Shown here in pieces: positions 18,728-32,000 of a stretch of DNA of 32,000 nucleotides (the first letter of the stretch is position 1; each line of letters opens with the position of its first letter). The stretch covers positions 16,344-48,343 of the forward strand of contig CAMAXP010000033.1 of the NCBI GenBank assembly GCA_945862265.1, read 5' to 3'. The notes beneath the pieces were generated by a model. That model had not been told where the DNA came from and made no database searches. It worked only from the letters and a program-made list of their open reading frames with translations. The position numbers were made by a program, and so were the translations under genes. The stretch is from Bordetella parapertussis. Its GTDB lineage: Bacteria > Pseudomonadota > Gammaproteobacteria > Burkholderiales > SG8-39.

Positions 18728-18798
18728 GTCTGCTAGTCAGTAATTTTGACTCTGCAACAGCACTTCACTGCACTTTTAGGCTGACCACTAAGGCGCTG

Positions 18799-19041
18799 TT
18801 GGTCAGTCGATACAGCGCGTATCAGCAGCAGCTACTAAAGCGAGTTACTGAGCTAAGGCTTGGTCGTGGACTATCGTTTCTGAGAATTGCGAAGACGCTT
18901 AGGGAAGAAGGCGTTCTGTCGAGCAAGGGGTTGGTGCTGTCAGCGCAGCACGTTTACTCGATATTCAAGAAGGGAACGTCGAGAAAGCGTAGATTGGCTA
19001 CAAAGGCGAAGGCGAGACTTGTGCAGCTAGATGTACGATAA
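18799..19041 (+). CDS. Small ORF resembling the HTH part of a serine-recombinase 'recombinase' domain; possibly a 5'-truncated remnant
   Basis: LLKRVTELRLGRGLSFLRIAKTLREEGVLSSKGLVLSAQHVYSIFKKG has the same residue pattern as WVKRIFKEIIKKTSIANIKQLLEANGVLPRRKGLWSLGSINALISN in the 30330 recombinase. Only a TTG start is available, and the frame stays open upstream across the glmS junction. Confidence 0.3.
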   Translation: MVSRYSAYQQQLLKRVTELRLGRGLSFLRIAKTLREEGVLSSKGLVLSAQHVYSIFKKGTSRKRRLATKAKARLVQLDVR

Positions 19042-19127
19042 GGCATTGACACTCAGACGCTAGCTAGAAATGCGCAAACTTGCGTATTGAAAAACACGCG
19101 TCCGCTTAACAACGCAGTGGAGAAATA

Positions 19128-20033
19128 ATGGCAAAAAAATCGAAGTCTGAAAATGATCTCGCTTCCACTGACGATGCGTCTAAAGATGTACCAAGCTACG
19201 ACGAACTAATCTTTCCCACGATCAAGGCACTAAACGCTTTAGGTGGGTCTGGAACGATCGAAGAAATCGTTAATAAAGTGATCGGACTAGAAAACATATC
19301 CCAAACTGCTGCAACTGCAATGCACTTGAATCACAGCATGACTGCACTTGAATATCGATTGGCTTGGGCGCGTACATATCTAAAGCGCGTGGGCGCAGTA
19401 GACAACAGCACGCGTGGAATTTGGACAGTTACGGAAGTAGGAAAGAACTACACGCAAGATGATTGCGCCAAAGTTCCTGGCGAAGTAAGAAAGCAAGACA
19501 AACTCGCTCGCGAAGCAAAGAATGCAACTAAAAGCGAAAACGATAGTGAAGCAGATGAAAACGGCAACGGAGTTCTAGATTGGAAAGAAGAACTACTCAG
19601 CGCCCTTCGCAAAATAACTCCTGATGCATTCGAGCGTCTATCTCAGAGATTGTTACGTGAAGCGGGATTTACGAAAGTTGAGGTCAAAGGAAAGAGCGGT
19701 GATGGTGGAATCGATGGAATTGGAATCCTTCGCGTAAATCTTGTTTCGTTCACGATTCTTTTTCAATGCAAACGATATAAAGGCAGCGTTTCCGCTGGAG
19801 CAGTGCGCGACTTTCGTGGCGCAATGCAAGGACGTTGCGACAAAGGATTAATCGTAACAACTGGAACGTTTACTGCTGACGCAAAGAACGAGGCAACGCG
19901 CGATGGTGCACCAGCCATTGATCTAATTGATGGCGAAAGCTTATGCGATCTGTTGAAGCAATTGCGACTAGGGGTAGAAGTAAAAGCAGTGGAGTCAGTG
20001 ATAATCAATTCAAAGTGGTTTGAGTCGATATAG
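19128..20033 (+). CDS. mrr: Mrr-family (type IV, modification-dependent) restriction endonuclease
   Basis: 301 aa. N-terminal Mrr winged-helix block (PSYDELIFPTIKALNALGGSGTIEEIVNKV) and a C-terminal Mrr catalytic core (FERLSQRLLREAGF...GKSGDGGIDGIG...LFQCKRYKGSVSAGAVRDFRGAM...GLIVTTGTFTADA). SD GGAGA lies upstream. Confidence 0.85.
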   Translation: MAKKSKSENDLASTDDASKDVPSYDELIFPTIKALNALGGSGTIEEIVNKVIGLENISQTAATAMHLNHSMTALEYRLAWARTYLKRVGAVDNSTRGIWTVTEVGKNYTQDDCAKVPGEVRKQDKLAREAKNATKSENDSEADENGNGVLDWKEELLSALRKITPDAFERLSQRLLREAGFTKVEVKGKSGDGGIDGIGILRVNLVSFTILFQCKRYKGSVSAGAVRDFRGAMQGRCDKGLIVTTGTFTADAKNEATRDGAPAIDLIDGESLCDLLKQLRLGVEVKAVESVIINSKWFESI

Positions 20034-20160
20034 CGTCGATATGCTTGAACGCTTTTATCTGAGCCATCTGCAAGGCGAGATGAACGTAGTGGCGCTGCAA
20101 TCGCAGAAGCACAAGAAGAAGACGAGTGCAAAAAATAAGGAAAAGAAAGTAGCGAGAAGC

Positions 20161-29794: not shown

Positions 29795-29861
29795 CGTATT
29801 AATTATTAAAAATGCAAATCATCTGAAAGAGAGAAATAAAGAAAGAAAGCTAAATACTCAC

Positions 29862-30221
29862 ATGCGAATCGACGAAGTAGCGGGACTGAAGACTTTCATT
29901 GCAACGGTGAGGGTCAAGAATGGCTCAAACGTAACAACGACTAAGACACCAATTCAAGCAGATGGGCAGATGCAAGCTCGTGCCATCATGACGCGCATCT
30001 TTGGGGAAGGAAACGTGCTTGCAGTGCTTGAGACTTCTCAGATCGCTGAGATGGAAGGAGGCACGAAGACGCTATCTGCAGCGGAATTGCGCGTTAAGTC
30101 TCTTGCTGACCAAGCAAAAAAACTTCAGGCGCAAAAAAAGCAAGAGGTCGCAAGGCAGTCATTGGACAAGGCACAGAAGAGAATGGCTGCGGCAAATCGT
30201 CCAAAGAAAACCGCACTGTAA
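29862..30221 (+). CDS. Hypothetical protein (119 aa) with a Lys/Gln-rich C-terminal tail
   Basis: ORF between res and the serine recombinase. It has no clear SD. N-terminal block KTFIATVRVKNGSNVTTTKTPIQADGQMQARAIMTRIFGEGNV is followed by a charged helix-like tail. Confidence 0.4.
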   Translation: MRIDEVAGLKTFIATVRVKNGSNVTTTKTPIQADGQMQARAIMTRIFGEGNVLAVLETSQIAEMEGGTKTLSAAELRVKSLADQAKKLQAQKKQEVARQSLDKAQKRMAAANRPKKTAL

Positions 30222-30329
30222 GCGCCATTTTCCATAGCAGGAGGCTAGGAAAAGAACGTCTTCGGCTATACAGTTGCACTCAGTCGAACTTCATTTTCTT
30301 CGTTGAACTGAGTAACTATAAAAGTATAG

Positions 30330-32000
30330 ATGGATCCGAAAATCTCTTCTGCTGAAACTCTTCACGTTTACACGCGTGTATCGACTGAGGCGCAGAAAGT
30401 CGAAGGGACTTCGCTTGAAACGCAACTAGAACTAGGCACGAAGCGCGCGAGTGAATTGGCTTTCAATCTTAAGCATTGGAACGAAGGCGGAGCTAGTTCG
30501 CATCACGAAGATCTTCTCAATCGTCCCGTTCTAAGTGAGCTATTGGTCGAAATCAACAAAGGGCAGATCAAGCATCTGTGGGTCTACGATCAATCGCGTC
30601 TCTCGCGTAACGATCATGTAGCGTCAGTGATTCGCTACGCATGTCAAAAACACGGCGTAACGCTCTACACAAACGAAGGCAAATACAATCTTTCTAATCC
30701 TAGCGACATGCTGCTTAAGCAGATCATGGACGCTATGGCAGGACACGAAAACGCAGTGCGCATGGAGCGAACGCGTTTAGGCAAACTGAACAAAGTAAAG
30801 ATGGGGCAGTGGCATGGAGGACCGCCGACGTATGGCTACGAGATTGTTGAAGGCAAGTTGGCAGTCAGAGAAAGCGAAGCGAGATGGGTCAAGCGTATCT
30901 TCAAAGAGATTATTAAGAAGACGAGTATTGCCAATATCAAGCAGCTTCTAGAAGCTAATGGCGTACTGCCTCGACGTAAAGGACTTTGGAGTCTTGGTTC
31001 GATCAATGCTCTGATATCAAACACGCACTACGATGGTTACTACCAATACACTGACAAGAAATCAGCTCAGACAGTAAAAGTTGATTGTCCACGTATCGTG
31101 GACAATTTGACGTGGGTTTCAGCGCAACAAACGCGAGCAGCGTCTGCCAAGCGTCAGCTACAACGTAACGCAACCACCAAGAATTTCTATCTTCTACGTG
31201 ACTTCATGCATTGCGGTCACTGTGGCAGAGCGATAAGTGCGCGCAAGGCAAATGGTGGCGTCTCAATCTACTACTGTCCGAACAAAGAGCGAGAGTGGGC
31301 AAATAAGGGTGGTACGCAATCAGCGTGGCAGCGAGGGAAGAATTGTGGATTTACGCGTTCGATGAACATTGAGCAGACAAATAAAGTAGTGTGGGACTTC
31401 ATCAAGGCGGTTCACAGTAACTCAAGTCATCTGAAAGAACAGGTAAAGAATCGCGTCTTGAAAGAACATGGGCTTGTTCAAGCGCCAGCTTTACAAGCGA
31501 AAAAGCTAGAAGGTCAACTAACGAAGTTACAACGCGAGCACAAGACGTTGAGCGAGACGCTTGGCAACGTCGAGGCAAATCACTTGTTGCGTAAGGTAAG
31601 CACTGTTGCCTATAAAACGATGGTCAAGCGTCTGACTGAGGAATTGCAAAAGCTCGACGAAAGCATTACGAAGGCGCGCACTGAGCTAAAAGGAACTTCT
31701 GAGGCAAACAAGTGGGTATATTGGCTGAAGGATTTCGGCGACGAGATCGAAAAGTTGGATCAGTTGAGCGATCAAGCAAAGCACAATTACTTGAGTGGGC
31801 TAGTCAGTCACATTGACGTTCTTTGTCATGACGCTGAAAAAGAACACGAGTTATTGATTCATCTTCAGATGCCAATCATCGAAGATGGAATCAAATACAC
31901 AGGCAAGAAAATAGGTGGTCGTAAGGAGTATTTGATCTTTGATGGAAAGGATCAAGCAAGTGTCAGAGTCCAAAAAAAAGACGCTCGAGGATGGCGATAA
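30330..32000 (+). CDS. Large serine recombinase
   Basis: 556 aa. Resolvase catalytic N-terminus LHVYTRVSTEAQ...DQSRLSRN, a recombinase domain, a zinc ribbon CGHCGR...YYCPNK, and a long coiled-coil-like C-terminus. The stop TAA is at 31998-32000, the last bases of the window. Confidence 0.88.
   Translation: MDPKISSAETLHVYTRVSTEAQKVEGTSLETQLELGTKRASELAFNLKHWNEGGASSHHEDLLNRPVLSELLVEINKGQIKHLWVYDQSRLSRNDHVASVIRYACQKHGVTLYTNEGKYNLSNPSDMLLKQIMDAMAGHENAVRMERTRLGKLNKVKMGQWHGGPPTYGYEIVEGKLAVRESEARWVKRIFKEIIKKTSIANIKQLLEANGVLPRRKGLWSLGSINALISNTHYDGYYQYTDKKSAQTVKVDCPRIVDNLTWVSAQQTRAASAKRQLQRNATTKNFYLLRDFMHCGHCGRAISARKANGGVSIYYCPNKEREWANKGGTQSAWQRGKNCGFTRSMNIEQTNKVVWDFIKAVHSNSSHLKEQVKNRVLKEHGLVQAPALQAKKLEGQLTKLQREHKTLSETLGNVEANHLLRKVSTVAYKTMVKRLTEELQKLDESITKARTELKGTSEANKWVYWLKDFGDEIEKLDQLSDQAKHNYLSGLVSHIDVLCHDAEKEHELLIHLQMPIIEDGIKYTGKKIGGRKEYLIFDGKDQASVRVQKKDARGWR

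Follow-up and report, generated by a model that had tools for sequence, protein, structure and literature searches.

Introduction

For Tn7 and CRISPR-associated transposons, the textbook safe harbour is the glmS gene. Tn7 itself transposes by means of TnsABC and TnsD to a point about 25 bp downstream of glmS, where it generates a 5-bp duplication. In staphylococci, the elements of the staphylococcal cassette chromosome (SCC) type, SCCmec and its relatives, are inserted by CcrAB or CcrC at rlmH (orfX), and replication or resolution of the circle has been proposed as the role of their backbone genes. Control of directionality is a central open issue for serine integrases. Here, an island located directly behind glmS is described in a stretch of 32,000 nt, hereafter the window, which corresponds to positions 16344-48343 of contig C33 of genome G000 (CAMAXP010000033.1 in assembly GCA_945862265.1, deposited as Bordetella parapertussis); the contig runs 240 nt beyond the window end, and coordinates above 32000 are window-equivalent, referring to contig sequence past that end. 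According to the comparisons presented below, this element is very probably a genomic island that is inserted by a large serine recombinase (LSR) in the last four codons of glmS, rather than a stripped-down Tn7.

Several described systems share some of its features. In Dehalococcoides, islands with the LSR DsiB/DsiA are found in tandem behind ssrA, an essential single-copy gene, with a 20-bp repeat of its 3' end (PMC3146451). The 3' end of dsiB invariably overlaps the att site, and it is suggested by the authors of that study that full function is perhaps attained only in the circular form (PMC3146451). The 'suicidal' tyrosine integrases of the SSV type, which have been reviewed as exclusively archaeal, have their recombination site in the coding region, such that integration partitions the gene (PMC8371274). 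Integration-dependent immunity has been described for mycobacteriophage BPs and its relatives, in which attP lies inside a coding region and integration alters the protein that is made (PMC4557955).

Boundaries of the island and site of recombination

The GC content is 65.5% across positions 1-18727 of the window and 44.9% across 18728-32000, with a sharp step between neighbouring 100-nt segments, from 65% (18628-18727) to 49% (18728-18827). The initial annotation, which was made from the letters of the window, had low-GC sequence begin right at the glmS stop codon (18725-18727). The GC content does fall there, but the DNA junction lies 10 nt upstream of the stop. That no terminator follows glmS, as also noted initially, was borne out by a scan of the + strand from the glmS stop to the next gene, in which no terminator-like site was found.

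The junction was located by comparing the sequences on both sides of an AC dinucleotide near the end of glmS. Left of AC, a host version and an element version of the sequence exist, and right of it there are two element versions; all four pairings were observed. These four half-site combinations bound strand exchange to positions 18716-18717, and with exchange at AC, island 1 extends from 18718 to window-equivalent 32041 (13,324 bp) and contributes the last 10 nt of glmS, 18718-18727. The 18-nt glmS end, TCNGTNAC directly followed by NGTNGARTAR, reads SVTVE-stop, and it is repeated at window-equivalent 32034-32051, 34 nt past the stop codon of the island-encoded LSR (LSR1). Another copy is found on the reverse strand of contig C27, where a second LSR, of 511 aa, terminates within it; the segment 18710-18797 recurs on C27 at 95% identity, and the 70 nt that follow the C27 copy are 95% identical to 18728-18797. 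A further glmS-end copy, with one mismatch, lies 1.2 kb on along C27.

When attP is rebuilt from the two ends of the island, a site of about 70 bp is obtained, which consists of two 23-nt inverted arms around a 22-nt core that mimics the glmS end (SVTVE-stop). In the rebuilt attP of this island, 18 of 24 outer positions are complementary about the AC, as against 9 of 24 in attL or attR. Over outer positions 11-34, 12 to 21 of the 24 are complementary in 19 of 21 cases (this island and 18 of 20 relatives), whereas the scores of the chromosomal junctions, attL and attR, are close to 6, the value expected by chance. In its sequence, the rebuilt attP thus has the anatomy of a serine-integrase attP, and its dyad centre agrees with the genetically bounded crossover. 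The initial annotation had suggested that the right end be looked for past nt 32000, along with a repeat of the left-junction bases; this end is indeed present 41 nt beyond the window, with the direct glmS-end repeat, but the left-junction bases recur there in inverted, not direct, orientation. The boundaries, the crossover and the symmetry of attP are read from sequence comparison, as are the array, the link of the family to glmS, the architecture of the open reading frames (ORFs) and the conservation of a slippery site, all of which are taken up below.

In the mechanism proposed, the circular form of the element would carry attP, and LSR1 would exchange strands between its central AC and the matching AC of glmS. 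The target gene would stay intact, the incoming element restoring its last 10 nt, and the element's own glmS mimic would end up at the far junction as the 18-nt direct repeat. We infer catalysis by LSR1, and integration by an LSR at the AC within glmS, together with the formation of an array, is regarded as highly probable.

Tandem array behind glmS

At least three elements appear to be stacked behind glmS, because glmS-end repeats recur past LSR1 and twice on C27. The order in G000, starting from glmS, is island 1, island 2, island 3, the last att scar, a block of 10.3 kb and the conserved flank. Island 1, nearest to glmS, is intact. Island 2 is represented by 190 nt at the end of C33, a gap in the assembly and, at the end of C27, about 1.9 kb that include the second LSR, and island 3 is a 1.2-kb remnant that contains a hydrolase gene and whose junction module has been deleted. 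Searches for the continuation of island 2 with the last 400 nt of C33, with a profile of the junction module (ext, see below) and with the ext2 peptide of a related locus, L040, matched no other contig.

The glmS-side junction retains the conserved glmS half-site, so newcomers could land there. The intact element is nearest to glmS and the most decayed one farthest from it, which fits such landings at the glmS-side junction, and the order of the array probably reflects the order of arrival.

In five genomes of the same genus, a homologue of the gene at about 45200-46756 of C27 is separated from glmS by 1-8 kb of unrelated DNA, and in G000 this conserved glmS flank of the genus occurs only at about 46756 of C27, past the array, so that all DNA between glmS and the flank is counted as inserted. 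Moreover, the sequence downstream of glmS differs in every one of about 27 relatives compared. The same flank gene preceded by differing DNA identifies glmS, by sequence, as a variable hotspot in the genus, and the initial view of a foreign island instead of conserved synteny stands. In another genus of the same family, locus L012 (G022 contig C74) has a glmS junction with the left end of island 2 of G000. From this comparison, close relatives of the island 2 element are shared across genera, and such elements tend to break assemblies. The L012 contig breaks 98 nt past its glmS junction.

On C27, the last att scar is separated from the conserved flank by the 10.3-kb block (about 46760-57090, L002:6500-16830), which has 58% GC and the look of an aromatic-catabolism cluster, with genes for an NMT1-type binding protein, an ABC ATPase, a flavin reductase fusion, an FAD monooxygenase, an extradiol dioxygenase, a hydrolase, a Rieske oxygenase and TctC. 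The candidacy of this block as a fourth element was dropped, as no att scar was found at its right edge.

The serine recombinase and its family

The Resolvase, Recombinase and zinc ribbon domains of Pfam score above cut-off both in LSR1, whose stop codon forms the final three bases of the window, and in the LSR of C27. The initial annotation had proposed a large serine recombinase at the far edge of the island and a minimal tyrosine recombinase inside it, and Pfam supports both. LSR1 and the second LSR are 43% identical across their first 360 residues or so. Among the scored candidates, 813 LSR1 homologues were found at E <= 1e-20, full-length ones numbering in the hundreds; the YTRVS serine motif is invariant in the LSR alignment, and the C-terminal consensus is KKKDxRG. 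The best NCBIfam match of LSR1 is CcrB, with 86.8 bits against a cut-off of 900, followed by CcrA (66.6 against 700) and CcrC (43.9 against 900). An assignment of LSR1 to Ccr was rejected on these scores, which are far below the CcrA, CcrB and CcrC equivalog cut-offs, and on its target, glmS and not rlmH.

A scan with one genome per species returned 79 LSR loci, which belong to Beta-, Gamma- and Alphaproteobacteria, Bacteroidota, Verrucomicrobiota, Chlorobiota and others. In most of them, the LSR has 33-70% identity to LSR1, and the att site and the ext architecture are shared. Of the 79 loci, 37 contain a glmS 3' end, where chance would give well under one; most of the other loci are truncated by contig ends. 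In 26 of the 37, glmS is upstream and co-oriented, as here, and in 11 it is convergent, the stop codons usually being 27-120 nt apart. A mimic of the glmS end follows just past the LSR stop in 49 loci, and the LSR gene always adjoins the att site in the family loci examined. Within the order, the LSR was found in only 2 of 401 genomes, the sole foreign match being partial. Full-text literature searches that combined glmS with serine recombinase or integrase found no description of LSR elements at glmS.

Some members of the family depart from the common layout. In one clade (L043, L044, L046, L047, L048 and L108), the LSR gene and glmS converge, 27 nt separating their stops, and the whole unit from ext to LSR is flipped with respect to glmS. 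L048 has a small resolvase-like ORF directly upstream of its LSR, which is reminiscent of CcrA and DsiA. At L056:245-2008, a mini-element of 1.76 kb is found in which a deletion fused ext in frame to an LSR that is devoid of its first 50 residues or so, leaving a single ORF that spans the distance between the glmS crossover and the att site that follows.

The junction module ext, a putative recoded extension of the integrase

The ORF annotated at 18799-19041, immediately behind glmS, is actually open back to the crossover. The module it belongs to, ext, is about 105 aa long and is found directly after glmS, open from the crossover, in 21 of the 26 co-oriented loci; in the convergent clade it has the orientation of the LSR gene and occupies the far end of the island. 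The initial annotation had taken this ORF for a recombinase-domain-like fragment. The likeness holds to the extent of a weak match to the first half of the Pfam Recombinase domain, with E 0.039 here and matches in 14 of 20 relatives (best 3.7e-6), but with its presence in 21 of 26 loci ext is a conserved module of the family and not debris. The predicted model (pLDDT 89.6) comprises a strand, a three-helix helix-turn-helix (HTH) and a strand. At E <= 0.001, ext matches 2903 cluster representatives. Profile-profile comparison revealed no significant similarity between ext and the LSR alignment (probability 0.3%), a PDB sequence search returned designed repeat proteins only, and Foldseek and VIA gave generic three-helix HTH matches, LSR recombinase domains appearing only among ties (Z 7.0, rmsd 8.2). 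The model thus predicts that ext is an HTH domain, whereas its kinship to the Recombinase domain of LSRs is hinted at by the weak Pfam matches alone.

When the two ends of the element are joined, the ext ORF runs without a stop, in the -1 frame, back to a slippery run among the final codons of the LSR gene; for LSR1, this run is an A8 located 18 nt before the stop. The open stretch of the -1 frame begins about 30 nt upstream of A8 and extends through attR into the ext of the next element, and at the junction of islands 1 and 2 the resulting hybrid ORF is open up to the contig end. Further tandem arrays, in L040 (11617-11982), L045 (11729-12034) and L084, show the same arrangement, the -1 frame of the LSR crossing attR into a different ext that belongs to the neighbour. 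A run of A6-A9 is present at the LSR gene end in 42 of 49 relatives with a recognisable att site, including A_AAA_AAG and A9 versions, and the att-crossing frame reaches it in 39. The shift required is -1 in 34 loci and +1 in 8, some loci being counted in both classes. The density of runs of at least seven A is 6.9 per kb over the final 90 nt of the LSR genes and 0.55 per kb in the gene body, a 12-fold difference, while only 55% of the Lys codons elsewhere in these genes are AAA. In the convergent clade, the LSR gene ends in the heptamer G_GGA_AAG, with a stop codon immediately after, and the -1 frame crosses the rebuilt attP into ext; in L048, a stop in that frame is located immediately upstream of the heptamer. 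In L083, the LSR and ext form a single ORF of 626 aa, with an attP-like site inside. A zero-frame X_XXY_YYZ heptamer with a conserved -1 ORF behind it, the hallmark of recoding in dnaX and insertion sequences, is found in these sequences.

On the circle, reading in the -1 frame past the slippery run would cross attP into the HTH of about 105 aa, whose coding sequence lies at the other end of the element. The circle, or else a junction between neighbouring elements, would be the sole source of the resulting long isoform of the integrase (about 680 aa), and integration would separate the LSR gene from ext and thereby remove the tail. That ext is a recoded C-terminal extension of the integrase which is detached by integration appears slightly more plausible than not. 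The fuller proposal, in which -1 recoding yields two LSR isoforms, the tail lies beyond attP and the make-up of the enzyme reflects the state of the element, be it circular, integrated or stacked beside a neighbour, giving a built-in directionality switch, is in our judgment evenly balanced. Since some loci require a +1 shift and the A-runs are long, transcriptional slippage remains an alternative to ribosomal frameshifting. The tail may bind DNA; our guess is that the long isoform would be specific to the circle and favour integration, and that its loss once the element is integrated would stabilise the insertion.

Alternative explanations

The location of the island in the classical landing region of Tn7, together with the end of the contig soon after the window, which leaves about 0.2 kb plus the gap unseen, might point to a decayed or cut-off Tn7-like element at attTn7 whose Tns and TniQ genes have been lost or lie beyond the window. 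This is extremely unlikely, as the junction is 10 nt inside the glmS frame and not about 25 bp downstream, the ends are an 18-nt direct repeat and dyad-symmetric arms unlike Tn7 ends, and the right end has been located, 41 nt past the window and beside the LSR. As the initial annotation had stated, no TnsA/B/C/D or TniQ families were found by Pfam among the ORFs of the island; its designation of the insertion site as the attTn7 hotspot is superseded by recombination at the AC inside the glmS frame. TniQ (PF06527) and TnsA (PF08722) had no match in the 4.6-Mb, 97%-complete assembly either, a weak search given that control genomes gave none. Conserved core synteny of the clade downstream of glmS, in favour of which no point was found, has a negligible probability in view of the differing sequences in all of the 27 or so relatives, the displacement of the genus-conserved flank by the array and the 10-kb block, and the scarcity of the LSR in the order. 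It is also very unlikely, if less so, that the island is integrated by its tyrosine recombinase and not by LSR1, the 18-nt repeat being a tyrosine-type identity core. Direct repeats of the target 3' end are typical for tyrosine integrases, and this gene is conserved in many related elements, with catalytic residues that look intact. Nevertheless, the enzyme has no N-terminal DNA-binding domain, its gene is in the middle of the island, 4 kb from the nearer end, and it was not found in several members that retain the LSR, the att site and ext. A 2-nt exchange at the centre of a dyad-symmetric site is the serine-recombinase pattern, and it is the LSR that is always adjacent to att.

A more serious contender, although we consider it less likely than not, concerns ext alone: the junction ORF might be an independent small gene, encoding a regulator or a directionality factor and expressed from its own start or by coupling, and the slippery run might merely reflect a conserved Lys-Lys-Lys at the C-terminus of the LSR. 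In the window, an in-frame ATG overlaps the LSR stop, stand-alone proteins of 80-200 aa have been called for most of the 150 best ext matches, the KKKDxRG consensus would account for the lysines, and in the integrated state ext would be transcribed with glmS, which has no terminator. On the other hand, the relatives have no conserved start codon and their ORF is open exactly from the crossover; the runs are A8-A9 in spite of the low AAA usage for Lys elsewhere; the convergent clade has an unrelated G_GGA_AAG and stop, with the -1-frame stop of L048 right upstream; and L083 joins the LSR and ext in one frame. The reading of ext as a recoded extension of an LSR-integrated island is in turn weakened by several observations. 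From the -1-frame ATG, located 12 nt ahead of the LSR stop, the tail could here be translated as a small protein of its own, and the zero-frame LSR has all the domains that characterised LSRs need, so that the tail may be dispensable. Eight loci need +1 and not -1, and seven have no A-run. No directionality factor was identified, and the related loci share ancestry, such that the counts overstate their independence. Finally, the contig ends 190 nt after attR, leaving island 2 incomplete, and the adjacency of C33 and C27 is deduced from the repeats only.

Genes of the island and its surroundings

The features of island 1 and of its target are listed in Table 1. The identity of glmS, and that of glmU, is supported by Pfam among the ORFs of the window, and glmS is 72-87% identical to the copies of the relatives. 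Upstream of glmU, at 13315-15383 on the - strand, two adjacent genes for phosphonate-type periplasmic binding proteins are found in ordinary core DNA.

Table 1. Coordinates of the features of island 1 and of its target gene in the window
Feature	Position	Strand	Evidence or remark
glmS, target gene	16901-18727	+	Pfam SIS and GATase domains; N-terminus MCGIVGAV
AC crossover dinucleotide (attL)	18716-18717	+	All four left/right half combinations; dyad centre of rebuilt attP
ext module, HTH domain ORF (predicted)	18718-19041	+	Open from crossover, glmS -1 frame, no conserved start codon
Left arm of attP	18728-18750	+	Inverted partner at window-equivalent 32007-32029, after LSR stop
Mrr-type type IV restriction enzyme, cargo	19128-20033	+	Pfam Mrr_cat, Mrr_N; PADLOC PDC-S02, mREase_IV
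Small AAA ATPase, backbone	20223-20873	-	Homologues in related glmS elements
Uncharacterised backbone gene	20934-21734	-	Homologues in related glmS elements
Uncharacterised backbone gene	21826-22602	+	Homologues in related glmS elements
Short tyrosine recombinase, backbone	22683-23282	-	Pfam Phage_integrase; 199 aa, catalytic domain only
DUF6641 protein, backbone	24381-24848	+	Pfam; homologues in L036-L040, L045, L100
Type III restriction-modification, mod then res, cargo	24939-29794	+	Pfam N6_N4_Mtase, ResIII; PADLOC MTase_III 4.8e-116, REase_III
Small backbone gene before LSR	29862-30221	+	47-50% identical homologues in L037, L038, L039, L045
LSR1, large serine recombinase	30330-32000	+	Pfam Resolvase, Recombinase, Zn_ribbon_recom; 556 aa, zero-frame product
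A8 slippery run (putative)	31972-31979	+	Heptamer A_AAA_AAA at 31973-31979, LSR frame

The genes for the AAA ATPase, the two uncharacterised proteins, the tyrosine recombinase, the DUF6641 protein and the small protein encoded before the LSR are assigned to the family backbone because they recur in related glmS elements. Homologues of the block 20223-22602 are found in L037-L039, L045, L049-L054 and L065; those of the tyrosine recombinase are 62-67% identical in L037-L040 and L100, and remoter ones are located immediately upstream of the LSR in L065, L066, L078, L089, L096 and L106. Replication or resolution of the circle are candidate roles for these backbone genes. As for cargo, the mrr gene and mod have no homologue in related elements, and res has one only (L052). 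The cargo had initially been described as Mrr, type III restriction-modification and "unknown modules"; PADLOC and Pfam confirm the identity of the two former, which are defence cargo, but the unknown modules turn out to be backbone. A mosaic composition was also proposed, and the mod/res block is more AT-rich than the left part (47.4% GC), with a GC content of 41.0% and not the 35% or so given at first.

Two kinds of repeats were noticed among these genes. The 19-nt palindrome ATGTCGTTCAAAACGACAT occurs three times (20198-20216, 22614-22632 and 22648-22666), where none would be expected by chance, and brackets the block of the AAA ATPase and uncharacterised backbone genes; L038 has the variant ATGTCCTTTCAAAGGACAT at gene ends, with paired changes that preserve the palindrome. 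Whether as terminator hairpins or as target sites of the tyrosine recombinase, these palindromes may have a function. An inverted repeat of 20 nt (18 of 20 positions), at 22673-22692 and 24268-24287, encloses the tyrosine recombinase gene and about 1 kb without ORFs, upstream of the genes for DUF6641, mod and res. The idea that it forms a conserved invertible switch is unsupported, as the repeats of the relatives are placed differently and resemble palindromic hairpins at gene ends.

Significance

What the initial annotation observed is confirmed, and its interpretation is supported in part: the island is foreign and devoid of Tn7 machinery, but the mechanism, the boundaries and the roles of several genes differ from those proposed. 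If the present reading is correct, a second, mechanistically unrelated system, based on serine recombination, uses the last codons of glmS across many phyla and stacks defence genes there, and the annotation of islands behind glmS changes accordingly. The family would also represent natural integrases with a ready-made, nearly universal bacterial attB, which is of interest for strain engineering. The recoded att-spanning tail, if it is real, would represent a novel mechanism by which a serine integrase senses its own state of integration; an integration-split switch, described so far only for archaeal tyrosine integrases, would then operate at a conserved site that is also used by Tn7.

Comparison with known systems

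With Tn7, the element shares the use of the conserved glmS end as a safe landing site and a cargo that is often devoted to defence or resistance, but it would enter the last codons by conservative site-specific recombination, and no Tns genes were found. An attP that would lie inside a coding region calls BPs and its relatives to mind; there, however, a repressor is affected and the integrase is of the tyrosine type, whereas here it would be the serine integrase's own extension. A resemblance to the SSV-type integrases may lie in the att site, which is located within the putative -1-frame continuation of the LSR gene, and within the same frame in L083. In contrast to those tyrosine enzymes, whose catalytic integrity is lost, the bacterial serine recombinase retains its canonical body and would lose only the putative frameshift-dependent tail.

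The Dehalococcoides ssrA islands are closer in layout, and the small resolvase-like ORF found upstream of their LSR also exists in the convergent glmS clade. Their target is ssrA, and neither a conserved domain past the att site nor a frameshift site has been described for them (PMC3146451). In the glmS family, a defined HTH domain (predicted) and a slippery site are conserved.

Together with those islands, the SCC elements are the closest working analogues: as in the present family, an LSR integrates them at the 3' end of a single-copy housekeeping gene that is kept intact, direct repeats of the gene end mark their bounds, tandem arrays and remnants are formed, and accessory cargo is carried. 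The two groups are distinguished by their targets, rlmH and glmS, and by their enzymes, a CcrA/CcrB pair in one and a single LSR in the other, while the putative recoded extension spanning the att site and the Gram-negative hosts of several phyla belong to the glmS family.

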